Below, one piece after another: positions 687-62,651 of a DNA stretch of 64,000 bases. Numbering within the stretch: position 1 is the stretch's first letter; the number at the start of each line of letters is the position of its first letter. Origin of the DNA: Akkermansia muciniphila (GTDB lineage Bacteria > Verrucomicrobiota > Verrucomicrobiia > Limisphaerales > BJHT01); contig CAMAUZ010000029.1 of assembly GCA_945861535.1 (NCBI GenBank), positions 7,935 to 71,934 on the forward strand, given 5' to 3'. Under the pieces are notes generated by a model, which saw only the letters and a program-made list of their open reading frames with translations, made no database searches and was not told where the DNA came from. The position numbers and the translations under genes are program-made.

Positions 687-755
687 GGATTCACGTGCCG
701 ATGTGGATTGATCGCGCTCATTGCGAAATGAATCTTGAAAGCCCGCAACTCCCTC

Positions 756-1004
756 GCCCCGGAGGGGCATCGCAGAATATTAGCCGGGGGCAAGCGAGGA
801 ACGAGCGCAGCCCCCGGTCCACCGCGTCGAACCGGGCATGCCCCGGAGGGGCACCGGAGGAAAATCCCGCGACCCACGCCACCCACCGCCCGGTTTTTCA
901 ACCGATGCCCCTCCGGGGCACGACCGCAAGTCATCACCCGTTCCGGGGGCCGCGCTCGTTCCTCGCTTGCCCCCGGCTAATTTCCTGCGGCGTCCCTCCG
1001 GGAC
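756..1004. repeat. Family-1 composite palindromic repeat, unit 1
   Basis: Left arm 'CCCCGGAGGGGCATCGCAGAATATTAGCCGGGGGCAAGCGAGGAACGAGCGCAGCCCCCGG'. Two internal hairpins, GCCCCGGAGGGGC and GCCCCTCCGGGGC. Right arm is the inverted copy 'CCGGGGGCCGCGCTCGTTCCTCGCTTGCCCCCGGCTAATTTCC...CCCTCCGGGAC'. Confidence 0.85.
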
Positions 1005-1135
1005 CAACTCCACGTCCTGTGCGCGCGCCAGACGAAACCGGGATCGCGCAACCCAGCAACGCAGGCTCGCTCTTTCTCGCACGTCCGAGCGCCCTCGCGT
1101 TCGCACCTTGCGATGCCGCGCCTTCGCGCGCCCCG

Positions 1136-1388
1136 CTTCGCCCCAGAGGGGCTTCGGAGAACATTAGCCGGGGGCAAGCGAGGAACGAGCGCAGCCCCCG
1201 GTCCATCGCGCCCTACATGCCATGCCCCGGAGGGGCACCGAAGGAAAACCCCGCGACTCACGCCATCCGCCGCCCGATTTTTCTACCGATGCCCCTCCGG
1301 GGCACGGCCGCAAGTCATCACCCGTTCCGGGGGCCGCGCTCGTTCCTCGCTTGCCCCCGGCTAATTTCCTGCGGCGTCCCTCCGGGAC
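1136..1388. repeat. Family-1 composite palindromic repeat, unit 2
   Basis: Same architecture and near-identical sequence to 756..1004. Ends 50 bp upstream of the RAYT-1 start codon. Confidence 0.85.
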
Positions 1389-1437
1389 AAAACCTTCTCG
1401 TTCGCACCTTTAACAACCAACCACTAAGAAAAACGTT

Positions 1438-1884
1438 ATGGGTTCCACCTACCTGAGCCTCCATTACCACATCGTCTGGGCGACCAAAGCCCGGCGCAAT
1501 CTGATCGAGCCACGGTGGGACCCGAAACTTCACGCCTTTCTCGGCGGCCTTCTGAAAAACCTCGGTGGCGTCGCCGAAACCATCAACGGCACCCGCGACC
1601 ATCTCCACATTCTCGCCGGCCTGCGCGCGACCCACGCCCTCGCCGACGTTGTCCGCGATTTGAAATCGCTCTCCGCCGAATGGGTTCACAAGGAACTCAA
1701 GGGTTGGGACTTCGGCTGGCAGGAAGGTTACTTCGCCGCCACCGTCAGTCCGACCCAACGCCCGTCCGTGCGCCGCTACATCGCCAAGCAAAAGGAACAT
1801 CACAAAACCGAGTCCTCGAAAACCGAACTCGAACGACTCCTCAAACGCGCTGAAATCAAATATGACCCGCAATACTTTGAGTAA
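1438..1884 (+). CDS. IS200/IS605-family Y1 (HUH) transposase, RAYT-like (copy 1)
   Basis: 148 aa. N-terminus 'LSLHYHIVWATKARR', HUH motif 'HLHIL', 'WQEGYFAATVS', and the catalytic Tyr-x3-Gln 'YIAKQ'. Flanked by hairpin repeats. No tnpB partner. Confidence 0.85.
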   Translation: MGSTYLSLHYHIVWATKARRNLIEPRWDPKLHAFLGGLLKNLGGVAETINGTRDHLHILAGLRATHALADVVRDLKSLSAEWVHKELKGWDFGWQEGYFAATVSPTQRPSVRRYIAKQKEHHKTESSKTELERLLKRAEIKYDPQYFE

Positions 1885-1902
1885 CTCGAAAGGGGTTCTC
1901 AC

Positions 1903-2003
1903 GATGCCCCTCCGGGGCATGGCCACCTTGAGCACCGCGTTCCGGGGGCTGCGCTCGTCCCTCGCTTGCCCCCGGCTAATTTCCTCCGGCGTCCCTCCGG
2001 GAC
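1903..2003. repeat. Family-1 half unit (GCCCCTCCGGGGC hairpin plus right arm)
   Basis: Begins 18 bp after the RAYT-1 stop. Same orientation as the arm at about 1288..1388 on the other side of the gene. Confidence 0.8.
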
Positions 2004-2173
2004 CAGTTCCACATCCTACCTGCGCACCAAAAGAAACCGCGCTCCCGCACTCCCTCAACGCAACCTCATTCCGCGGCGTATCTCCGCACGCCGTCGTCAT
2101 CGCGCCATTCCGCAACCCACCTCCGCGCACGATTGCCGCCGCACCACCCCATAACGCATTTCCATGCGCCCCG

Positions 2174-2426
2174 CTTCGCCCCGGAGGGGCATCGCAGAAC
2201 ATTAGCCGGGGGCCAGCGAGGAACGAGAGCAGCCCCCGGTCTGCCGCGCCCCACGCTCCATGCCCCGGAGGGGCACCGAAGGAAAAGCCCGCCACACCCA
2301 CGGCCCACCGTAAGCTATTTCTGACGATGCCCCTCCGGGGCACGGCCGCAAATCCTCCCGCGTTCCGGGGGCTGCGCTCGTTCCTCGCTGGCCCCCGGCT
2401 AATTTCCTGCGGAGTCCCTCCGGGAC
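2174..2426. repeat. Family-1 composite palindromic repeat, unit 3
   Basis: Full unit, near-identical to 756..1004 and 1136..1388. Ends 30 bp upstream of the ATG at 2456. Confidence 0.85.
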
Positions 2427-2455
2427 AAATCACGACCATTCCCCGCTCCTTTCCC

Positions 2456-5841: not shown

Positions 5842-8800
5842 ATGAACTCTCTCTGCCCCTTATTTGCTCGAAAGCTGAGGCAACCTTTCGCCACTTCCGT
5901 TTTCGCGTTCTTTGTGCTCTTTCGCGGCCCTTCCTCCTCCGCCGAAGCCCCCGACTTCGCCCGCCACATCGCCCCCCTCTTCCAGCAGCACTGCCTCGAC
6001 TGCCACGCCAAGCAGGACCCCGAAGGTGGCCTCGTCCTAGAGGACCACGCCTCGCTCCTCAAAGGCGGCGACTCCGGCCCCGCCATCCTCCCTGGCAAAA
6101 GCTCCGACAGCCGGCTCGTGAAATTTCTCGAAGGCCGCTCCGGCAAAGAAGGCAAAAACCAATTCATGCCCCCCGGCAAAAAGAAGCACCTCGACCCCGC
6201 CGAAATCGCCCTCATCAAATCGTGGATCGACGCCGGTGCCAAAGCCCCCGCCGCCCCCACCATTGCCTCACTCAACATCCCGAAAATCACGCCCAAGACC
6301 GCTCCCGCGCGCTCCATCACCGCCCTCGCTTTCTCCGCGCCCGCCAAGCTTCTCGCCGCCGGCCGCTACGGCGAAATCGATCTCCTCGACGCCACCACGC
6401 GCCAGATTCTCCGCACCCTCCCCGGCCATCGCGGCAACATCACCGCCCTCGCCTTCTCCGCCGACGGCACCCAACTCTTCGCCGCCGCCGGCGACCCCGG
6501 TCTCGTCGGCGAAGTCCGCCAATGGAACCTCACCGACCCCGCCCAGCCCAAACTCCTCCGTGCTTGGGACGCCCACCCCGACGCCCTCTACGCCCTCGCC
6601 CTCGCGCCCGACGGCCAGACCCTCGCCACCGGCAGCTACGACCAGCGCATCAAACTCTGGGACACCGCGACCGGCGCGGAACGCCGCACCCTCAAAGGCC
6701 ACAACGGCGCCGTCTTCGGCCTCGCCTTCCGCCCCGACGGACGCGTCCTCGCCAGCGCCAGCGCCGACCGCACCGTGAAACTCTGGGACCCCGCCACCGG
6801 CGCGCGCCTCGACACCCTCTCGCAACCCACCAAGGAACTCTTCACCATCGCCTTCGCCCCCGACGGCAAAACCCTCGCCGCCGGCGGTGCCGACAACCGC
6901 ATCCGCCTCTGGCAGGTCACCGACCGCGCCCTGGAAGGCAGCAACAAACTCCTCTACGCCCGCTTCGGCCACGAAGGCTCCGTGCTGAAACTCGCCTTCA
7001 CCCCCGACGGCAAAACCCTCGTCAGCACCGCCGCCGACAAATCCGTGAAACTCTGGACCACCGCCGAACTCACCGAACGCTCCGTGCTTGAACCCCAATC
7101 CGACTGGGCCTCCGCCCTCGTCCTCACCACCACCGGCCAGCTCATCATCGGCCGCCTCGACGGCACCCTCGGTTTCTACAACGCCACCACCGGCACCGCC
7201 CTCGCCCCCGCCGCCAAAAAATCCGCCCGCGGAGCGCCGATCTCCGATCCGGCGCTTCTCTCTGTAGCCGCCGACGTGAGGAGGCGGATGCTCCCCGCAA
7301 CCGAGCTGCCATCATTCAAAAAAATGCCGGAACCCTTCGCCTCGAAACCACCCGCCGGGTCGGAGACCGGCGCTCCTTCCGCGCGCGTACTCCGCCGTCT
7401 CCTCGCCGCCAATCCCACCGCCTTCTTCGCCCAAACCGCGAAGAAAAACGACAAGCCCGCCGCCGCCAAAGCCGCGCAAACGAAAGCCGTCGCCGACAAA
7501 AAAGCCGCCGCCGCCGGCAAGCCCGTCCTCACCCGCCTCGAACCTCCCGCCCTCCAGCGCGGCGCAACCTCCGAAATAAAACTCTTCGGCAAAAACCTCG
7601 CCGAACTCACCGGCCTCAAATTCTCGAACCCCAAACTCCTCGCCGAAATCCTCCCCGCCGATCCCGCCAAACCCGACGAAGCCCGCGTCAAAATCACCGC
7701 CGACGCCTCGCTCCCCCGCGCCCCCATCGAAGTCAGCGCCGTCACCGCCGCCGGCGAGAGCGAGAAACTCAAACTCACCCTCGACGACCTCCCCCAAATC
7801 GCCGCGCCCCTCGCGCCCAAACCCGGCGCACCCGTCCCGCTCGCCTCGCTGCCCGTCGGCATCTGGGGTGTCCTCAAAGAAGCCGGCGCGCGCTCCGAAT
7901 TCGTCTTCGCCGCCCGCGCCGGACAAACCCTCGTCTTCGATCTCGCAGCCCGCCGCATCGCCTCCAAAGCCGTCACCCCCGCGCTGCAATTGTTCGACGA
8001 TCGCGGCGTCCTCGTCGCCAGCAATTACGGCATGGAAAACAACACCGACCCGCTCCTCGCCTTCCACGTTCCGCGCGACGCCCGCTACACCATCCGCGTC
8101 AGCGAGGTCACGCTCGAAGGCTCCACCGATCACACCTACCACCTCACCCTCGGCGCGCTCCCCTACGTCACCGGCTTCTTCCCGATCAGCGCCGGCACAA
8201 ACAAGGAAATCGAAGTCACCCTCGCCGGCTACAATCTCCCCGCGCCCACCGTCCGCGTCACCACCACCGCGCCCGGCAACGCCAAGCTTCCCCTCGCCCC
8301 CACGATCCGAACGCGCGGCACGCCCGAACTCCTCGTCACCGACGCCACCGAACTCATCGAAACCGAACCCAACGACACGTCCGCCCAAGCCCAGTTCCTC
8401 CCGATTCCCAGCTCCGTCAACGGCCGCCTCTTCTCCTCGCGCGACGCCGCCCGAACCGCCAACGCCACCGCCGCCCCCGACGCCGACCTCTTCGCCTTCG
8501 AGGCCAAACGCGGCCAGCAGCTCGTCCTCGAAACCCTCGCCGCCCGCGCCGGTTCGCTCGCCGACACCAAGCTCGAAATCCTTTTCCCCAACGGCGAACC
8601 CGTGCCGCGCCTGCGCTTCCAGGCTGTGCGCGATTCCTGGATTAATTTCCGCCGCCAGGACGCCAACGCCGTCGGCGTGCGCATCGCCAACTGGGAGGAA
8701 ATGGACCTCAGCCAATACGTGTGGTTCAACGGCGACATCCAGCGCGTCGTGCAAATGCCGCGCGGCCCCGACGCCGACATGATCTTCGCCAACAACAACG

Positions 8801-9962: not shown

Positions 9963-9988
9963 GTGGCCGCCGAGGTGAGGAGGCGGAA
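9963..9988 (+). repeat. GTAG-hairpin mini-REP, variant (GTGG)
   Basis: 'GTGGCCGCCGAGGTGAGGAGGCGGAA', intergenic, downstream of the giant gene. Confidence 0.65.
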
Positions 9989-14617: not shown

Positions 14618-14643
14618 GTAGCCGCCGAAGTGAGGAGGCGGAT
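14618..14643 (+). repeat. GTAG-hairpin mini-REP
   Basis: 'GTAGCCGCCGAAGTGAGGAGGCGGAT'. Confidence 0.8.
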
Positions 14644-14747
14644 CGGGGGCTGCGCGCGGGCCGTCCGCCGATCCATGAACTTGGGCATGGGGCGCCGAGC
14701 ATTGCTCGGCATGGGGTGCGGGAGATGCCCGAGCCGAGCAACGATGT

Positions 14748-14961
14748 GTTTAGCGCCAAAGGCGCGGCTCATACCAGCCTGGGGCAACGCCCCAGGTCAG
14801 ATGTCAGCCAATGAATTCAGGGGCTGAAAGCCCGTTCCATCTTCCTGATGAAGGGTGATCCGTCCCCGCGATGGACCGCGCTTTCAGCGCTCAAATGGTA
14901 AATGGCTCGTTTCCTGGGGCGTTGCCCCAGGCTGGGATAAGTCCACGCCTTTGGCGCTAAA
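14748..14961. repeat. Family-4 composite palindrome (TTTAGCGCC...GGCGCTAAA)
   Basis: Six symmetric small hairpins: GCGCCAAAGGCGC, CCTGGGGCAACGCCCCAGG, GGGCTGAAAGCCC, GCGCTTTCAGCGC, CCTGGGGCGTTGCCCCAGG and CGCCTTTGGCG. Confidence 0.8.
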
Positions 14962-15169
14962 CAGATACGCCGAGCCAAGCTCGGCGCTCCGATTCAAGAG
15001 CACGCGACCCGACGTTGCGTCGTGTGGTTCTCCTTGCCCTGAGTTGGAACTGGCGGCGAGACGCCGCCCGAACTCGCAGGCGAGGACGCCTGCGGTACAA
15101 GCCGGCCCGCGGGCCACCCGTGCTCCTGCCGTTCGCTACGCTCTCCACCACCGCCGCCAGCCTCGGACT

Positions 15170-53548: not shown

Positions 53549-54427
53549 ATGCAAATCGAGAGTTTGAAAGTCTTCTGCGACCTCACCGAAACCGAAAGCT
53601 TCACCAAGGCCGCCCACATCAACGGCGTCACCCAGTCCGCGGTGAGCCAGCAGATCAGCTCCCTTGAGCGGCACTTCAAGTCCATGCTCATCGAGCGGAG
53701 CAAGAAGAAGTTCCGCCTCACCCGCGAAGGCCAGGTGCTCTACGAATACTGCAAACAGATCATCCAGACCTTCGACGCCCTCCACAATCGCATCCAGGAA
53801 ATCAAGGACATCGTCTCCGGCACCATCCGCGTCGCCACCATTTACAGCATCGGCCTGCACGACCTGCCGCCCTACATCAAGCGCTTCCTCAAGGCCTATC
53901 CCACGGTCAATGTCCACGTCGAGTACCGCCGCTCCAACCAGGTCTATGAAGACGTCCTCGGCAACGTCGTGGACCTCGGGTTGGTCGCCTATCCCACCAA
54001 GGATCCGCGCCTGGAAATCCTCCCGCTCCGCAAGGACATGCTCGCGATGATCTGTCATCCCAATCATCCCCTGGCGAAAAACCGCACGGTGAAACTCAGC
54101 TCGATCGCGGGTCAAAAATTCATCGGCTTCGAACCCGACATCCCCACCCGCAAAGCCATCGACAAAATCCTCAAGGACCGCGCCATCGCCGTGCAGCACG
54201 TCATGGAGTTCGACAATGTCGAAACCGTGAAACGCGCCGTCGAGATCGACGCCGGCATCTCCATCGTCCCCCAGGGAACCGTGGTGCAGGAAGTCGCCAA
54301 ACAAACGCTGATCCAGTTGCAGATCGAGGACGCCGATTTCTTCCGCCCCCTCGCCGCGATCTACAAAAAGAACAAGGTCCTCTCGCCGGCGATGAAACAG
54401 TTCCTGTCGATCGTGAAGGAGAGCTGA
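53549..54427 (+). CDS. LysR-family transcriptional regulator
   Basis: 'MQIESLKVFCDLTETESFTKAAHINGVTQSAVSQQISSLE' wHTH plus a LysR substrate-binding domain. Confidence 0.9.
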   Translation: MQIESLKVFCDLTETESFTKAAHINGVTQSAVSQQISSLERHFKSMLIERSKKKFRLTREGQVLYEYCKQIIQTFDALHNRIQEIKDIVSGTIRVATIYSIGLHDLPPYIKRFLKAYPTVNVHVEYRRSNQVYEDVLGNVVDLGLVAYPTKDPRLEILPLRKDMLAMICHPNHPLAKNRTVKLSSIAGQKFIGFEPDIPTRKAIDKILKDRAIAVQHVMEFDNVETVKRAVEIDAGISIVPQGTVVQEVAKQTLIQLQIEDADFFRPLAAIYKKNKVLSPAMKQFLSIVKES

Positions 54428-54557
54428 GCGCAGGCGGGTTTGCCCCGGAGTGCGCCCGTCCCCGGGCGCAGCGACGTCCAAAGTCATGGGCGCGGTGAAT
54501 CGGTCTCGGCAGCGCCCGAGAATCCCAGCCCACGGTCCCGCCCACGATGCCCTCCCC

Positions 54558-54654
54558 GATCCCGGAGGGATCGAAGAAATTAGCCGGTGGTGAAGCGCAG
54601 CGGAACCACCGGACAAGCCCTCCCCAGAACCGAGATTGCGTCCCGGAGGGACGC
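54558..54654. repeat. Family-2 left end (TTAG-hairpin arm plus GCGTCCCGGAGGGACGC hairpin)
   Basis: 'GAAATTAGCCGGTGGTGAAGCGCAGCGGAACCACCGG' followed by 'GCGTCCCGGAGGGACGC'. Confidence 0.8.
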
Positions 54655-54925
54655 GAGAGGCGCGGAAATGGAGATGGTGGTCAGTCATCCCGGCGCTGCG
54701 GTGGGGCGCGGGCACCGTCCCACGATGACACGCCCGGCGGGGACATAGCTCGCTTCTTTGAATCGGTCTCGCGTTTCCCCATCCCGTTGCCAACCGCCGT
54801 GATCATCCCAACCTCCGCCTTGGAGTTCTCCCTTTCGGGACCAAAGCAACCGGATGCCGAAAATGCGCGGCGCAACGGCTTGAAAAACGGATTGCTCATC
54901 GTCGCCGCGCAAGGATGCTTTCGTC

Positions 54926-55372
54926 ATGCCCTCAACACATCTCTCGCTTCATTACCATCTGGTTTTCAGCACCAAGGATCGTGAGCCGTGGTTCCGTCCA
55001 GATTTGCGGCCGCGAATTCACCAATACCTTGGCGGGGTGATTCGCAGTCTGGATGGCATCCCGCACGGAGTCGGCGGCATGGCCGATCATGTGCATGTCT
55101 TCGCAGGGTTGCGGGCCACTCATTGTCTGGCCGATGTGATGCGCGAACTGAAGAGCGACTCATCGCAGTGGGTGCATAAGGAACTCAAGCTGGGTGGCTT
55201 TGCGTGGCAGGAGGGGTATGGAGGATTCACGGTCAGCGCTTCAAATCTGGAGTCGGTGCGGAACTACGTCCTGAATCAGGAACGGCACCATCGGACCAAG
55301 ACGTTTCAGGAAGAGTATGTCGGGATGTTGAAACGGGGATTGGTGGAATACAAAGAAGCGCATCTGTGGTGA
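54926..55372 (+). CDS. IS200/IS605-family Y1 (HUH) transposase, RAYT-like (copy 2)
   Basis: 148 aa. 'LSLHYHLVFSTKDRE', HUH 'HVHVF', 'WQEGYGGFTVS', and Tyr-x3-Gln 'YVLNQ'. Clearly diverged from copy 1, so these are paralogues rather than copies of one IS. Confidence 0.85.
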   Translation: MPSTHLSLHYHLVFSTKDREPWFRPDLRPRIHQYLGGVIRSLDGIPHGVGGMADHVHVFAGLRATHCLADVMRELKSDSSQWVHKELKLGGFAWQEGYGGFTVSASNLESVRNYVLNQERHHRTKTFQEEYVGMLKRGLVEYKEAHLW

Positions 55373-55400
55373 GACGCCTTTCGCGGGTGCCACGCTTCTC

Positions 55401-55494
55401 TCGCCCCTCCGGGGCGAAGCATTGTTTTTGCCGTTGATCCGGTGGTTCCGCTGCGCTTCACCACCGGCTAATTTCTTTCGTGCCTCCGGCACGA
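55401..55494. repeat. Family-2 right end (CGCCCCTCCGGGGCG hairpin plus inverted TTAG-hairpin arm)
   Basis: 'CCGGTGGTTCCGCTGCGCTTCACCACCGGCTAATTTC'. Confidence 0.8.
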
Positions 55495-55504
55495 CGTCGG
55501 CCTC

Positions 55505-57202
55505 TCACCTCCCCACTTCCACCAACTCATACCGGGGCCACAGCACCACGGAGAAATGGAACATGATGGCCGGCAAATACGGCGCGCTCGAGTGGTACAC
55601 CGCGTCGCCCGTGTTGCCGTTGAGCACCGCCGCGAGCAGCGGCAGACGCAACCCCTTCAAATCGTAGCTCCCATCCGCGCGACGACGCTCCGCCGGTGCG
55701 CCGAGGCCGGCCCACGGCAGGCGGATTTCGCCCGTGTAGCCGGTGTCGCGGTCGGTCGGGTCGTTCACCGTCGAGGGCCGGCCATCGGCGCGGGGCTTGA
55801 GCTGCACGGCGCGGGCGACGGTGAAGGCACCGTCGTCATCCACGTAGCGTTCACGATGGAAGGTCACGTCCTTGTAGGAAGGCTTGGGGATTTTCGCCAG
55901 CGCCTCGGCGGAGGGCAGCTCGATCCCGAGATTGTTCAGGTGATTGGCCGCGTTGTGATGGATTTCCCAAAACGTCCGCACGCTGCCGAAGGAGATGAAG
56001 AACTCGACGAGATCCAACTTTTTCTCCGGCAGATACTCCTCGCTCATCGGCCGGCGATTGGCCGGCGGCCCGCTCTCGCGCCCGGAGGCGATGGCCACGA
56101 GGTTCGTGTCGTTCACCTCGTAACCGATGTAGAGATACCGCTCGTCCCACGCGAGACGCGCCGTCACCGGGGGCGGCTGCGTGCGCTGACCGTGTGCGGC
56201 GTAAGGAAACGCGACCACGACCGGAACCGCCCGTTTCCAGCACTCCTCATCCAGTTTCCCATCCATCGCCGGCGCGACCGACGTGCGGTAAATCGGCGCG
56301 GGCGGGACGGTCTCGGTCCCGGTCGCCGCCGCGCGGTCGCGCGCGAACTGCGGTGACTCAAAGTACCCGGCCGGCGGCGTCCACACCGTGCGGAAGCCGA
56401 CGTGATAATACGTTTCATCCGGTTTGAAACCGAAGCGCTTGGCCGCGTAGAAACCCACCCAGCCGTGATACCACGAGCCGCCGCGCAGACTGACGACCTT
56501 TCCGTAGTCGCGCATCTTCTCAGCCTGCGGGTTGCCCGGATACGGCTCCAGCCAGTCGGCGGTCCACTCGTATTGGTTGCCGATAAGATCAAGCACGCCG
56601 TAGGGCGAACGGCCTTTGGGATAACTGCCCGCCTGCGTGTAGAGCGGCGGCTGCTTGCCCTTCGCGCCAAGGTGCCCGTGGTCGGGCGTGGGCGCGTCGT
56701 TGCCCCACGGATAAAGCCGACCGTCGGTGCCACGCGCGGCCTTCTCCCACTGCGCATCGGTGGGCAGCGCCTTGCCGGCCCAGCGGGCGTAGGTCTTCGC
56801 TTCGTCCCAGGTGATCTCGCCGGCCGGCAGCGACTGCGACTCGGGCCGGTCGAAGTGCCGCGTCGTTTCTTTGAACTTGGTTTTGTGTCCCGTGGCGGTG
56901 ACGAACTGCTTCCAACGCGCGACCGTCGCCTCGCATTCGTCGATGAAGTAGCCGGGCAGTTCCACCGTGCGGCGCGGATAACAATCCCACGCCCACAACG
57001 TCGCGGCGTCCTTCGCACCCAAGTGCTGCGCCACGACATTCGCCTCGGCCTCATCGAGGCCCATGATGAACTTGCCCGCGGGGACATACACCATCCGCGC
57101 GCCGTCGCCGGGATGAACGATGAGCGTACCCGCCGCCGGCTCGGCGGCTCGACTGGAAACGCCCGACCATGCCCAACAGGCGAACGCGACAAGGAGAAAC
57201 AC
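55505..57202 (-). CDS. Formylglycine-generating-enzyme (SUMF1/FGE-sulfatase) domain protein with C-terminal CBM9/DOMON-like domain
   Basis: 'VSLRGGSWYHGW', 'YRVNRGGS'-type FGE signature region, and the C-terminal 'WDERYLYIGYEV'. Start provisional (GTG at 57202); the ORF-track N-terminal extension crosses a mini-REP. Confidence 0.75.
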   Translation of the reverse strand: MFLLVAFACWAWSGVSSRAAEPAAGTLIVHPGDGARMVYVPAGKFIMGLDEAEANVVAQHLGAKDAATLWAWDCYPRRTVELPGYFIDECEATVARWKQFVTATGHKTKFKETTRHFDRPESQSLPAGEITWDEAKTYARWAGKALPTDAQWEKAARGTDGRLYPWGNDAPTPDHGHLGAKGKQPPLYTQAGSYPKGRSPYGVLDLIGNQYEWTADWLEPYPGNPQAEKMRDYGKVVSLRGGSWYHGWVGFYAAKRFGFKPDETYYHVGFRTVWTPPAGYFESPQFARDRAAATGTETVPPAPIYRTSVAPAMDGKLDEECWKRAVPVVVAFPYAAHGQRTQPPPVTARLAWDERYLYIGYEVNDTNLVAIASGRESGPPANRRPMSEEYLPEKKLDLVEFFISFGSVRTFWEIHHNAANHLNNLGIELPSAEALAKIPKPSYKDVTFHRERYVDDDGAFTVARAVQLKPRADGRPSTVNDPTDRDTGYTGEIRLPWAGLGAPAERRRADGSYDLKGLRLPLLAAVLNGNTGDAVYHSSAPYLPAIMFHFSVVLWPRYELVEVGR

Positions 57203-57286
57203 CCGGTGGAAAATGCCACGTCCTGTCGTGGCGGCGGCGCAACGGGCCGGCTTGAAACGTCCCCGAGAAATGTCCGCCGCAGACCC

Positions 57287-57312
57287 GTAGCCGCCGACGT
57301 GAGGAGGCGGAT
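57287..57312 (+). repeat. GTAG-hairpin mini-REP
   Basis: 'GTAGCCGCCGACGTGAGGAGGCGGAT'. Confidence 0.8.
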
Positions 57313-57543
57313 TTCCCCGGAGCTCCCGCGTTTCCATCCGCCTGCCGATGCACGGCACCGCAGGCGTCTCGCCTGCGGCACGGCGGCCGCGGCCGACTGA
57401 CTCGCCGCGCTCGACGCAGATACGATCACCGCAAGCAGCGCTTTTCCTTGGCGCTGCGGTTCTCCTCAGGGCGACGGCTGCGTCGTCACAGAAGCTTCGG
57501 AAACCGGCGCTCCCGGCGGGTGTGTCGTTGGTTGGTTGTGTGT

Positions 57544-58437
57544 TCATTCTGCCTTCACTCCACTCAAGGGATGTTGCACCGCGGCCTGCCACGCCAGTTC
57601 TTGCAGCAGTTTCACCAGCGCCGGATCGGCCTTCGGGCCGCCGAGCATCGCCGGAGCCGTCAGCCCCACCGGACTGCGGCGGTACGTCACGGCGAAATGG
57701 CAATACGCCACGAGCGCCTGCAACGGCGGTCTGGCGTGACCAATCGGGTCGGTAAAGAGGCTGTCCTGCGTCTTGAGTCCCGGCACCTCACCCGCGACGA
57801 TCTTCTCGCGCAGCGCCAGCACCGCCTGGCCGACCGGCACGACCAAGATTGCGGGCTTGCCGAGCTTCTGGTTCAGCTCCCGCACATGCGCGTCCATCGC
57901 CTCGAAATAGCCGGCGTGCCGTTTGCGCAGCTCCCCGATGGTCACCGCGCTGTGATTGGTCGCCTTGGGATCGCGGAGCATCGCTGGCGGCTCATACCAG
58001 TCATAGGGCAACCAGAATTCCTGCACCGTGATGCGGATGTTCGGATTCCCCTCCAGCGCGAGCTTCGCAAAATTCTCGATCCCCGGATCGGGCAGGAAAA
58101 TCGGCGCAAGCGTGAGCACATCCACCTTGCCCGTGCGCAACGACACCTTGGACTTGTTCTTGTCGTCCACCACATCCCAGTGCTGGATCACGCGCGAGCC
58201 GCCGATGGAGGACAGCCCGACCCGCGTGTGATTCGTGATGCCCGCCGCCTGCGCGATGTCCTGCAAAATCGGCGGCATGAACACATGAAAACTGTGGCCG
58301 ACCGAATAAATCCGCACGCCCTGCGTGATGGCGGCGGCCGATTTGGCGGGCGCGCTATCCTGCCCGAACACAGAGGCCGCAAGCACCGCGAGGCCGATGG
58401 CGGACAGGGCGAAGGCTTTTCCCAAAGGGTGAAACAT
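57544..58437 (-). CDS. Secreted hypothetical protein, possible SGNH-like hydrolase fold
   Basis: Signal peptide 'MFHPLGKAFALSAIGLAVLAASVFG'. 'IYSVGHSFH' sits at the position of SGNH block I. The assignment is weak. Confidence 0.55.
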   Translation of the reverse strand: MFHPLGKAFALSAIGLAVLAASVFGQDSAPAKSAAAITQGVRIYSVGHSFHVFMPPILQDIAQAAGITNHTRVGLSSIGGSRVIQHWDVVDDKNKSKVSLRTGKVDVLTLAPIFLPDPGIENFAKLALEGNPNIRITVQEFWLPYDWYEPPAMLRDPKATNHSAVTIGELRKRHAGYFEAMDAHVRELNQKLGKPAILVVPVGQAVLALREKIVAGEVPGLKTQDSLFTDPIGHARPPLQALVAYCHFAVTYRRSPVGLTAPAMLGGPKADPALVKLLQELAWQAAVQHPLSGVKAE

Positions 58438-58589
58438 GGCGCGCAGGCTTGTACCAAAACCGGTGGTGGGCAAACTATTTCATCCAGCGCGTCCGGGTTT
58501 GGCGAATCGACGACGATGAAGCCGAAGTTGCAGCGCGAGTTCCGTCCCGCCCTGCCGCAGGAAGCACACGCCGCAGGAATCCCGTCCCC

Positions 58590-58858
58590 GTCGTGCCGGA
58601 GGCACGCAAGAAATTAGCCGGTGGTGCAGCGCAGCGGAACCACCGGATTAATCGCCGAAAGAAGCCCTTCGCCCCGGCGGGGCGAGAGAACTGCAAAACT
58701 CGCCACCCCGCGTCGCCACCCAGGACCTCTTCGCTCCCTTCTCGGCCCGCCTTCTCGCGTCCCTCCGGGACGCAATCACGATTTGGGTGGGGTCGATATC
58801 CGGTGGTTCCGCTGCGCTCCACCACCGGCTAATTTCTCTGCTCCCGCCGGGAGCAAGG
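58590..58858. repeat. Family-2 composite element (269 bp), RAYT-less
   Basis: TTAG arm, GCCCCGGCGGGGC hairpin, 68-bp core, GCGTCCCTCCGGGACGC hairpin, inverted arm. Both halves match the ends of locus 54558..55494 in inverted orientation. Confidence 0.85.
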
Positions 58859-58924
58859 CACACGGGCCGCCACCACGAAACCGCTGCGGGCCGGCCGGCC
58901 GCGCTCCTGCCGTGCCCACCACCG

Positions 58925-59938
58925 TCACTTCTTTTTCCCCGGCAGTTCCAGCACCGGCCACGGATCGCGGGCGAACGCCTCCCATTGCTGATTCAGCGCC
59001 TCCGCCGTCGGCCGGCCCGCGTGAACATAAATGCCGTAGCGCACCCGCAGCGACTCGCCGGCCCGCAGCGTGAGCGGCGCGCCGAACGTGAACGCCGCCC
59101 CCATCCAACCATCGTCGCGCACATGATAGGTCGCCGGATGCCCGGGGTTCTTCGGGTGATCCAGCAGCGTCGCGCCTTCGAGCACGTTCGGAGCAATCAG
59201 GCCCGAATAATCAACCCAGCGCGCCGGTTGCCAGAACACGCCCTTTTCGTTCACGCCGCCCGCCGAGTTGCGAATCATGCCGCCGCCATCGTGAACGCCG
59301 ATGGTCTTCGCCATCCGCACCGCCGCGAGACCGAACGGCGTTTTGCCAAACACCACCTCGGGCGGCTTCGCCTCGAATTGCGAATCCACCACCAGCAGCC
59401 ACTCGCGATCCGGCAGCAGTTTCACCGCCGTGCGCCGCCGTTCCTGGAGCAGGACTTTGCCGCGCGGATCGGTCCACGCATTGATCGTCTGGATGAAGGC
59501 CACGTCGTCGCCGTCCTCCAGCAACTCGATCCGCTGATGCACGATGCGGCCGGCATTCGTGCCGCGGTCGGCCCAGAACGTGACCCCATTCACGTCGTTG
59601 TGCGCGAGCCACGCCGAGTTGTGATGACTGTGGCTCTCCGGATCGCGCGGATGCCCCAGGCGCGTGACCGACACACCCGCCGGACCGATCAGGGGAAAAA
59701 CAAACGGGCGGGGCAACGTCGGGCCGTAGTGATACCGCCCGATCTCAACGCCGCCGCGCTGGAACGACACCTGATGATACGGCTGCGGGATGACCTGCAA
59801 CCGCGGCACCGGCTTGGGCGCGGACAACGGCGGAGCGTCCTGCGCCGCCCCGGTGTTAAATGAAAAAGCCGCCGCCGCGAGCACCACCACCAGCAGGACG
59901 CGCGACGATGGGAGGGAAGGGTGTCGGAGGTTTTTCAT
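58925..59938 (-). CDS. DUF6807/PmoA-like family secreted protein
   Basis: Signal peptide. 'YHYGPTLPRPFVFPLIGPAG' and 'HPRDPESHSHHNS' resemble the PmoA-like family common in PVC genomes, from memory. Confidence 0.6.
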   Translation of the reverse strand: MKNLRHPSLPSSRVLLVVVLAAAAFSFNTGAAQDAPPLSAPKPVPRLQVIPQPYHQVSFQRGGVEIGRYHYGPTLPRPFVFPLIGPAGVSVTRLGHPRDPESHSHHNSAWLAHNDVNGVTFWADRGTNAGRIVHQRIELLEDGDDVAFIQTINAWTDPRGKVLLQERRRTAVKLLPDREWLLVVDSQFEAKPPEVVFGKTPFGLAAVRMAKTIGVHDGGGMIRNSAGGVNEKGVFWQPARWVDYSGLIAPNVLEGATLLDHPKNPGHPATYHVRDDGWMGAAFTFGAPLTLRAGESLRVRYGIYVHAGRPTAEALNQQWEAFARDPWPVLELPGKKK

Positions 59939-62350: not shown

Positions 62351-62589
62351 CGAACCCCGGAGGGGTTCCCGGTGAATAGCCGGGGGTGGAGCGAGGCACG
62401 AGCAAGCCCCCCGGAAACCAGCCGCCGCGCTCCCGAACCCCGGAGGGGTTCCCCGATCACCGGACCGTCCGCAACTCCCCAGAAGGGGCTACCCCTGCGG
62501 GGTAGAGGCTGATTCTCCGCCCCTTCCCGGGGGTACGCTCGTTCCTCGCGCACCCCCGGCTATTCACCGGGAACCCCTCCGGGGTTCGG
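62351..62589. repeat. Family-3 composite palindrome (ATAG-hairpin arms)
   Basis: 'GAACCCCGGAGGGGTTCCCGGTGAATAGCCGGGGGTGGAGCGAGGCACGAGCAAGCCCCCCGG' and the inverted 'CCCGGGGGTACGCTCGTTCCTCGCGCACCCCCGGCTATTCACCGGGAACCCCTCCGGGGTTC'. Confidence 0.85.
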
Positions 62590-62651
62590 CTGCCGGAGTC
62601 CGGCACCGCTACGGATTCCGCAAGCTGCCCCCGCCCCCCGCCGCCACTTCC

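Follow-up and report, generated by a model that had tools for sequence, protein, structure and literature searches.

When a small transposase gene and a gene-less element 3 kb away carry the same pair of structured ends, do they form one enzyme-repeat system, and to which known kind does it belong? The question is raised by a 64,000-nt stretch (the window) of contig CAMAUZ010000029.1 from the verrucomicrobial assembly GCA_945861535.1. A Y1/HUH transposase gene on the plus strand (54926..55372) is bracketed by two inverted modules (54553-54663 and 55392-55498), and both module subtypes occur again, in inverted orientation, in a gene-less doublet of 273 bp (58587-58859) located 3 kb from the gene. 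An earlier annotation made from the letters alone (the sequence-only reading) had described the gene as resembling that of a tyrosine transposase associated with a repetitive extragenic palindrome (REP), known as a RAYT, and the doublet as its deletion derivative. Our analysis indicates that the locus is probably a system of the REPtron/REPIN type, in which a Y1 transposase gene sits between its own recognition repeats and is accompanied by gene-less repeat pairs.

Module anatomy of the gene-bearing element and the doublet

The alignment of four arms, extended to eight after adding a related species, revealed a module of about 105 nt consisting of H1, AGAAATTAG, a core, a linker and H3. H1 is the outer 7-bp GC hairpin and H3 the inner 7-bp GC hairpin, followed by GAGA; the linker is variable and about 20 nt long. 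The core is an invariant 8-bp hairpin formed by CCGGTGGT, a 13-nt loop and ACCACCGG, with the tetranucleotide TTAG at its 5' foot. The features of both elements are as follows.

54553..54663, plus strand: subtype A module at the left end of the gene-bearing element (covariance-model score 118.1 bits)
54557-54573, plus strand: H1 of the left module, CGATCCC-GGA-GGGATCG
54580-54583, plus strand: TTAG foot of the left module
54584-54612, plus strand: core hairpin of the left module (CCGGTGGT, 13-nt loop, ACCACCGG), then the linker
54638-54654, plus strand: H3 of the left module, GCGTCCC-GGA-GGGACGC, then GAGA
54664..54925, plus strand: spacer of 262 nt from the left module to the start codon, no feature recognised
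54926..55372, plus strand: Y1/HUH transposase gene of 148 aa ('RAYT-2' in the sequence-only reading)
55392..55498, minus strand: subtype B module at the right end of the gene-bearing element (118.6 bits)
55401-55417 (plus coordinates): H3 of the right module, TCGCCCC-TCC-GGGGCGA, then a short T-rich run
55439-55467 (plus coordinates): core of the right module, followed by CTAA at 55468-55471 (TTAG on the minus strand)
55478-55494 (plus coordinates): H1 of the right module, TCGTGCC-TCC-GGCACGA
58587..58694, plus strand: left module of the doublet, subtype B, matching the right end of the full element (117.4 bits)
58592-58606, 58614-58617, 58618-58646 and 58669-58685, plus strand: H1, TTAG, core and H3 of the doublet's left module
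58695..58747, no strand: centre of the doublet, no homology detected to the interior of the gene-bearing element
58748..58859, minus strand: right module of the doublet, subtype A, matching the left end of the full element (113.4 bits)
58757-58773, 58800-58828, 58829-58832 and 58840-58854 (plus coordinates): H3, core, CTAA and H1 of the doublet's right module

Two module subtypes (named A and B) were distinguished. Subtype A carries GATCCC or GCTCCC in H1 and CGTCCC..GGGACG in H3, and subtype B carries CGTGCC in H1 and CGCCCC..GGGGCG in H3; the differences between them inside H1 and H3 are compensatory. The modules pair head-to-head with TTAG outermost, and enclose either the gene or only about 55 nt. 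The gene-bearing element is arranged as A-gene-B, and the doublet has B on the left and A on the right, so that the A-to-B polarity is flipped. Gene-less doublets at the locus of a related species (L055) are likewise A/B pairs. The asymmetry common to the long and the short form is the strongest local sign that both belong together.

Repeat finding over 54000-59500 reproduced the coordinates of the two structured ends around the gene, and the four-way alignment bore out the proposal that these ends recur inverted in the short element, its left arm resembling the right arm of the full element and its right arm the left. The inverted-repeat pairs linking the two elements are 55422-55496 with 58589-58663 (75 nt, 89%), 55396-55419 with 58667-58690 (96%), 54560-54613 with 58799-58852 (91%) and 54619-54658 with 58753-58792 (85%). 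The two flanks of the gene are also mutually inverted (54562-54613 and 55438-55489, 92% over 52 nt), as are the doublet's own arms (58596-58648 and 58798-58850, 87%). The sequence-only reading had the short ends joined by about 68 bp; the join is indeed short, with an actual gap of about 60 nt between the inner hairpins (58691-58752). The 34-nt core TTAGCCGGTGGTGAAGCGCAGCGGAACCACCGGA, which comprises TTAG and the hairpin, has exactly four copies in the window at no more than one mismatch, with 0.00 expected from 100 dinucleotide-preserving shuffles; it is identical in both gene-flanking modules and differs by one base in each doublet module. Chance resemblance among generic GC-rich hairpins is ruled out by this expectation of zero and by similarity that extends over about 105 nt and includes A/B-specific linkers, which upholds the earlier claim, as do the arm alignments at 85-96%.

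When folded as single-stranded DNA (ssDNA), every arm gives the three hairpins H1, core and H3, with z-scores of -2.8 to -4.4. The left module (54553..54663) reaches -25.4 kcal/mol (z -4.0), and the right module (55392..55498) gives z -4.0 and -4.4. The segment 58585-58862, which contains the whole doublet, folds into a single long hairpin of -92 kcal/mol (z -9.7). In the modules of the window H1 and H3 are conserved in structure and share a CCGGAGG-type apex, and they may act as secondary binding sites or as stabilisers of module extrusion.

Both the gene-bearing element and the doublet are intergenic and adjoin the 3' ends of genes. The gene-bearing element starts with GATCCC after ...ccctcccc and stops with GGCACG before acgtcgg; the gene-less one starts with CGTGCC after ...cccgt and stops with GGGAGC before aaggcac. 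Inverted ends are present, and direct repeats indicating target duplication are absent at the edges of both elements, so that neither qualifies as a miniature inverted-repeat transposable element (MITE). The lack of a target-site duplication is expected of Y1 enzymes. The window contains no attachment site in a tRNA or tmRNA gene. A promoter and terminator scan returned counts no higher than the shuffled expectation and no promoter-like site beside the modules; the sole terminator-like structure it found is the H3 hairpin at 55401-55417, right after the stop codon.

Independent assemblies (L061-L064), two metagenome-assembled genomes (MAGs) at NCBI among them, show the layout of the gene-bearing element and the doublet again, 97-98% identical, which rules out an assembly chimera. 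The contig of the window was also recovered at 100% identity (L001).

The transposase and its subclass

The 148-aa product of 54926..55372 matches Pfam Y1_Tnp (PF01797, E 1.1e-21) and scores 59.3 bits against the NCBIfam model transpos_IS200 (IS200/IS605 transposase), for which the cut-off is 55. Its motifs read ADHVHV, AWQEGY and YVLNQERHH. In an alignment of 30 homologous sequences the invariant residues are H55-x-H57 (the HUH motif, with V56 here), W94-Q95, the catalytic Y114, Q118 and H121-H122. The AlphaFold (AF2) model of the protein has a predicted local distance difference test (pLDDT) score of 87, and its top Foldseek matches are the TnpA-DNA complexes of ISDra2 and IS608 (E about 1e-8 to 1e-7); the E. 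coli RAYT 4er8 comes no higher than rank 30 (E 3.5e-5, 11% identity). With a metal-binding HUH motif, a catalytic tyrosine and the IS200 TnpA fold, the protein falls within the Y1/HUH superfamily. In a sequence search of the PDB the matches were TnpAs (ISDra2-like, IS608, Sulfolobus) with a best E of 3e-5, and 4er8 was absent at E<=1. Collectively, the motifs, the PDB sequence search and the fold ranking rule out a canonical RAYT (class 2, Y---NP), and the identity first given to the gene had to be replaced.

By its motifs (DHVH, WQ, Y---Q--HH, 148 aa) and fold, the enzyme is an IS200-like TnpAY1 of subclass 1.2, an assignment made by motif comparison with Table 1 of PMC6006769 and not by the hidden Markov models of that paper. 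Members of subclass 1.2 are described as near the IS200 transposases without having the properties of insertion sequences, as low in copy number and as having a median length of 148 aa (PMC6006769); the REP column of Table 1 reads "no" for them, they are listed as lacking end structures of the IS type, and they occur mostly in Cyanobacteria and Bacteroidetes (Quentin et al. 2018, PMC6006769). The enzymes considered here share with this subclass the signatures DH[IV]H, WQ and Y---Q--HH, the length of 148 aa, the apparently low copy number, the divergent paralogues and the lack of a tnpB partner. They depart from the published description in their hosts, which are Verrucomicrobiota and Acidobacteriota, and in the structured inverted modules, tagged with NTAG, that bracket the gene in the window and in homologous loci. 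An IS200-like enzyme combined with a REPtron-like DNA architecture makes the system look like an intermediate between IS200 elements and RAYTs.

Beyond these two phyla, a tnpA of Bacteroidota on the Bernardetia sp. plasmid NZ_CP147018.1 (L066) is 36% identical and carries the subclass 1.2 signature as NYILNQPEHH. It is flanked by 32-nt inverted repeats containing GTAG, two per side (1086-1182 and 1692-1764 of L066). These repeats suggest that subclass 1.2 owes its "no REP" attribute to the search criteria of 2018.

Relatives, covariation and duplication of the modules

The core of this gene's repeats (family 2) was searched for as an exact pattern in 185,579 species-representative genomes, so that the counts obtained are lower bounds. 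The scan returned 47 loci, all in MAGs, from Verrucomicrobiota (Verrucomicrobiales, Chthoniobacterales, Limisphaerales, Opitutia) and Acidobacteriota (Blastocatellia). Where both cores fit the family-2 pattern, the plus/minus pairs that enclose a gene have their starts about 570-620 nt apart, and the enclosed Y1 gene is 56-69% identical to that of the window. The start of the gene lies only 55-170 nt from the core in these other genomes. The core spacing of about 860 nt in the window is due to the 262-nt stretch upstream of the gene (54664..54925), which is not conserved: BLAST against the 88%-identity L055 locus covers only 54558-54660 and 54915-55496. Gene-less plus/minus pairs have core starts 124-280 nt apart, and the loci L008, L026 and L054 have tandem arrays beside the gene.

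The 29 specified core bases are unchanged across two phyla (L008-L054), beside transposases 56-69% identical to that of the window, yet the Prosthecobacter enzyme, which is 76% identical, is accompanied by a core variant; core identity does not simply track protein identity. Carriage of the core between phyla by a phage or plasmid is not favoured, as no viral contig contains it and the plasmid matches to the protein are remote (36% identity or less).

A covariance model (R1) built from eight modules retrieved 143 full-length three-hairpin modules in 52 sources from Verrucomicrobiota and Acidobacteriota, nearly all of them arranged as head-to-head doublets. In the resulting alignment 94.7% of the pair cells are standard pairs, and 19 of the 22 pairs have changed on both sides. 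Compensatory cells number 387, where shuffles give 93±13; slid controls pair at only 30-54%. The foot of the core, scored in 141 modules, is TTAG in 64, GTAG in 43, ATAG in 14 and CTAG in 3; the foot is thus NTAG, which takes in GTAG, the canonical REP tag.

Genes at 71-76% identity on a 2.3-Mb MAG contig and in Prosthecobacter debontii and Roseimicrobium gellanilyticum lie in unrelated gene neighbourhoods, and each is bracketed by modules of this plan whose stems differ slightly. The earlier proposal that a repeat similar to REPs and bacterial interspersed mosaic elements (BIMEs) is linked to its Y1 enzyme is therefore supported by the shared asymmetric ends and by the recurrence of the plan around homologous genes elsewhere. 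The modules also leave practical traces. The database homologues P0101, P0026, P0082, P0117 and P0120 have spurious N-terminal extensions (e.g. ...RKLAGGAARLGE...; KLAGG... peptides), which are the translated upstream TTAGCCGG module, so that the repeat misleads gene callers. The contig L002 (about 1.1 kb) starts 362 nt upstream of the start codon, i.e. inside the left module by coordinate arithmetic. In practice, the modules break metagenome assemblies, as in L002, and cause the N-termini of genes to be mis-called.

Copying of the complete unit is seen on the 2.3-Mb contig, where two paralogues 95 kb apart are 93% identical in amino acids and 80% identical in DNA over 847 nt. The DNA similarity starts and stops at the outer edges of the modules, which shows that module, gene and module were copied as one unit. 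Gene-less copies are dispersed as well, with 4-5 on separate contigs in other MAGs and an identity of 85-93% among those of a single MAG. The Blastocatellia MAG JBJXFM01 (L010, L013, L018, L038) has four gene-less doublets of about 215 nt that are 85-90% identical, together with one gene-bearing copy, and the doublets end sharply at TCCTGAGCCCC...GGGGCTCAGGA. The Verrucomicrobiales MAG-13 (L016, L037, L046, L048) has one gene-bearing and at least four gene-less copies, 90-92% identical.

The relation between the doublet and the full element in the window is best judged beside L055, where the homologue 88% identical to RAYT-2 lies in a different gene context with gene-less A/B doublets on both sides. 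The doublet of the window is 79% identical to an L055 doublet over 281 nt, with core spacings of 185 and 186 nt, respectively. A doublet shared with another species at constant spacing is a conserved replicating unit and not a one-off local deletion. Its centre is weakly similar to the centre of one L055 doublet (score 27), and shuffle tests found no significant similarity between the centre and the interior of the full element in the window or in L055 (p 0.16-0.39). The deletion derivative of the sequence-only reading thus finds no support in the centre; a derivation by deletion would be deduced from the end modules, the only part shared with the full element.

Proposed mechanism, rival explanations and further repeats

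The TnpAs of IS608 and ISDra2 and the TnpAREP proteins of E. coli, S. maltophilia and Marinomonas bind a folded ssDNA hairpin, and the tetranucleotide 5' of the hairpin serves as a recognition element and/or a guide to the cleavage site (PMC8266576). By analogy, the TnpA of the window would bind the folded core hairpin on ssDNA, e.g. at the replication fork, and the TAG of the foot would guide the choice of a nearby cleavage site. Y114 and the metal site of H55/H57 would then cut and rejoin the strand, and the segment between two inverted modules, whether or not it holds a gene, would move or be duplicated, with the replication fork as the probable place. On gene-less doublets the enzyme would act in trans. 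Mobility, the binding step, the site of cleavage, the choice of strand and activity at the present day are all inferred in this scheme; the underlying REPtron/REPIN-type organisation we consider likely.

A number of observations weigh against this interpretation. IS200-type TnpAs normally use two same-strand hairpins and not inverted ends. Classical REPs occur in hundreds of copies, and the copy number of family 2 is low, at four modules in the 64 kb of the window and a handful per MAG (lower bounds from the exact-core search). Some of the invariance seen in the core stem is circular, because loci were picked by an exact core and aligned by fitting to the model; the covariation of H1 and H3 is unaffected by this selection. 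The sequences on either side of the Blastocatellia doublets are themselves palindromic and come in two flavours, shared pairwise between copies, and the doublets of MAG-13 are nested in a larger repeated unit (at least 560 nt) that continues past the modules and, by eye, appears to have its own outer inverted ends. Such flanks and the larger unit may mean either that palindromes are preferred as targets or that the doublets are nested within another repeat, and part of the spread may have come about via carriage in other repeats or segmental duplication. As the MAG-13 unit is larger than the modules, MAG-13 is not counted as proof of enzyme-driven mobility.

The same-species strains add to these points. 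In MAGs 97-98% identical to the window both elements are fixed at the positions they have here, no polymorphism was found, and no clean empty site was obtained among the contigs available, which are same-species contigs with both elements and the 88% homologue in another context. In four same-species contigs (L061-L064) the start codon of the transposase is ACG in place of the ATG of the window, and gene callers report a 114-aa product from them. Apart from the start codon the ORF is intact, with 18 nt and 6 aa differences; 17 of the 18 nt differences fall within 54927-55080 and none within 55081-55364. The clustering and the ACG start may indicate a recombination tract or an incipient loss of expression, and the enzyme may not be made in these sister MAGs.

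Fixation at identical loci and the ACG start would suit a history in which both copies are immobile relics of an IS200-like element and its short relative, with hairpins that are harmless or co-opted, e.g. as 3'-end or terminator structures. The presence of a single gene-less copy within 64 kb, the unconserved 262-nt stretch upstream of the gene and the terminator-like H3 directly after the stop codon fit such relics too. We regard this history as unlikely, given an intact ORF in which strain differences are mostly synonymous (18 nt vs 6 aa), catalytic residues that are all invariant, near-identical TTAG and core in four modules, and hairpin pairing that is kept by compensatory changes. The intact protein, near-identical cores and compensated hairpins argue for continuing selection on both the protein and the DNA. 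Spread of the doublets without the Y1 enzyme, through recombination, segmental duplication or carriage in other repeats or MITEs with their own ends, would account for the MAG-13 unit, for the flanking palindromes of the two flavours in Blastocatellia and for the tandem arrays by the gene in L008, L026 and L054. This explanation is very unlikely in our judgement: the doublets of the window and L055 share H1 boundaries and a constant core spacing of 185/186 nt across species, the Blastocatellia copies end sharply at the module sequences given above, and REP dimers inserted in palindromes have already been described for enzyme-linked REP families (PMC3733652).

The modules could also work primarily at the level of RNA or the host, as small RNAs (sRNAs), mRNA 3' structures or sites for host proteins, the link to the Y1 gene being incidental or secondary. 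Compensatory changes are equally expected of an RNA structure, and both elements are intergenic beside the 3' ends of genes. The Rfam family RF01687 (Acido-Lenti-1) moreover matches the CTAA and H1 part of the family-2 modules at 28.6-28.9 bits (at 55464-55493 and, on the minus strand, at 58592-58621) and related loci at up to 36.0 bits over the whole stretch of core, foot and H1, in each case below the gathering score of 37. At gathering thresholds Rfam gave no match at the gene-bearing element or the doublet, and permissive thresholds added only these sub-threshold Acido-Lenti-1 hits. A function of this kind is highly improbable, since the modules form head-to-head pairs in which either orientation is present, keep no single transcript orientation and lack an accompanying promoter-like site; the same gene family is bracketed by them in dozens of genomes from two phyla, and a conserved tetranucleotide plus hairpin is the format already known for ssDNA substrates of these enzymes (PMC8266576).

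The Acido-Lenti-1 resemblance can be read in another direction. The motif was reportedly described by Weinberg and co-workers in 2010. On the opposite strand its layout of hairpin, CUA(A/C), a linker of about 8 nt and a small GC hairpin equals core, foot and H1, although in the Rfam model the first hairpin is short and H3 is missing, and the family is filed as an RNA gene without a transposase link. The RF01687 seeds from Koribacter and Lentisphaera show hairpin-CUAC/CUAA-linker-hairpin, the opposite strand of which is GTAG or TTAG followed by a hairpin. The Acido-Lenti-1 'sRNA' may thus be a REP-like DNA element of the same kind as the modules, which we offer as a lead and not as a proven identity. 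The sole Rfam match of the window above threshold (37.3 bits, gathering score 37 bits) is at 14752-14796 on the minus strand, an arm of an inverted doublet of about 300 nt (14689-14990) with three nested arm pairs.

REPtrons and REPIN-RAYT systems were reportedly described by Nunvar in 2010, Bertels and Rainey in 2011 and Ton-Hoang in 2012 for the E. coli TnpAREP with its BIMEs and the Pseudomonas RAYTs with their REPINs, and RAYTs are said to have been divided into groups 1-5 by Bertels in 2017. The system of the window resembles them in having a Y1/HUH gene between cognate inverted repeats, a 5' (G/T)TAG followed by a GC-rich hairpin, gene-less head-to-head doublets that, as in REPINs, form one long hairpin, two repeat subtypes per doublet (as Y and Z2 in the E. 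coli BIMEs), several families per genome, each with its own enzyme, and extra doublets clustered by the gene. It differs in its enzyme, which has Y---Q--HH and not the class 2 Y---NP and is nearer the IS608/ISDra2 TnpAs than the E. coli RAYT, in its repeat, a composite of three hairpins of about 105 nt where known REPs are single palindromes of 20-40 nt, and in its apparently low copy number and a gene-bearing unit that apparently still duplicates as a unit. IS200/IS605 elements and their palindrome-associated transposable element (PATE) or MITE derivatives are similar in the small Y1 TnpA fold, the hairpins near the ends after a guide tetranucleotide, the lack of a visible target duplication and the short gene-less forms that keep only the ends. 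The ends of IS200/IS605 elements, however, are distinct same-strand hairpins, whereas those found here are mutually inverted over about 105 nt; in addition, there is no tnpB, and no near-identical multi-copy set is seen (one copy per family in 64 kb).

Tyrosine-transposase genes flanked by long inverted repeats, as here, are also known as TIRYTs in TIRtrons, which can form small families and occur in Acidobacteria too (PMC3733652). TIRYTs are mostly of subclass 2.1 with a C-terminal helix-turn-helix, and their terminal inverted repeats carry a GGGGWSAS motif, neither of which applies to the present system. The sequence-only reading had considered such a link uncharacterised in Verrucomicrobiota; this holds in part, as REPs and a REPtron have been reported in the verrucomicrobium Opitutus terrae, with an enzyme (Oter_2468) of class 2, Y...NP (PMC3733652). 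The REP/RAYT arrangement itself is known, and what is new here is the REPtron arrangement on a subclass 1.2 enzyme with composite modules.

Among domesticated bacterial transposases that have short-repeat populations of their own, REP/RAYT systems have been studied best, and their origin from IS200-type elements is unsettled. The window offers a REPtron architecture run by an IS200-like enzyme, in phyla hardly examined for such systems. If the enzyme acts on the modules, the locus would provide a tractable intermediate for the shift from same-strand ends to inverted REPs, the "no REP" attribute of subclass 1.2 would be corrected and an Rfam "sRNA" would be re-annotated as a transposase substrate. 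A broader proposal, which we regard as possible but short of an even chance, is that the subclass 1.2 TnpAY1s are the enzymes of widespread composite three-hairpin NTAG repeats, so far unrecognised, in Verrucomicrobiota, Acidobacteriota and possibly Bacteroidota, that the gene unit transposes and spreads REPIN-like doublets as a living IS200-RAYT intermediate, and that Acido-Lenti-1 is their DNA recognition element and no RNA gene.

Further repeats of the same plan were found in the window. The sister system (family 1; 696..2432, plus strand) consists of a paralogous Y1 gene and seven modules. The gene (1438..1884) is 49% identical to the 54.9-kb gene by tblastn and 47% in the 30-sequence alignment, and has the Y---Q--HH motif. 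Its core differs, reading TTAG plus CCGGGGGC...GCCCCCGG, and the modules score 25-39 bits with the covariance model; they form gene-less doublets of about 260 nt (750-1010, 1134-1394 and 2172-2432) and a lone module just after the gene (1894-2009). Two genes, each with its own core, make two enzyme/repeat pairs in the window, as in genomes with several RAYT/REPIN pairs. Another gene-less head-to-head doublet of this plan (62352-62591) has an ATAG foot and the core CCGGGGGTGGAGCGAGGCACGAGCAAGCCCCCCGG, with no cognate gene in the window.

A short canonical GTAG REP, GTAGCCGCCGAnGTGAGGAGGCGGAT, occurs as four singletons, all on the plus strand (7264-7289, 9963-9988, 14618-14643 and 57287-57312), with 0 expected by chance. 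One GTAG REP lies in a strain-variable block (57150-57546) between an FGE-sulfatase-like gene and the next gene; the block is about 400 nt long in the window, and the 97-98%-identical L061 has instead about 150 unrelated nt at this position (8123-8273).

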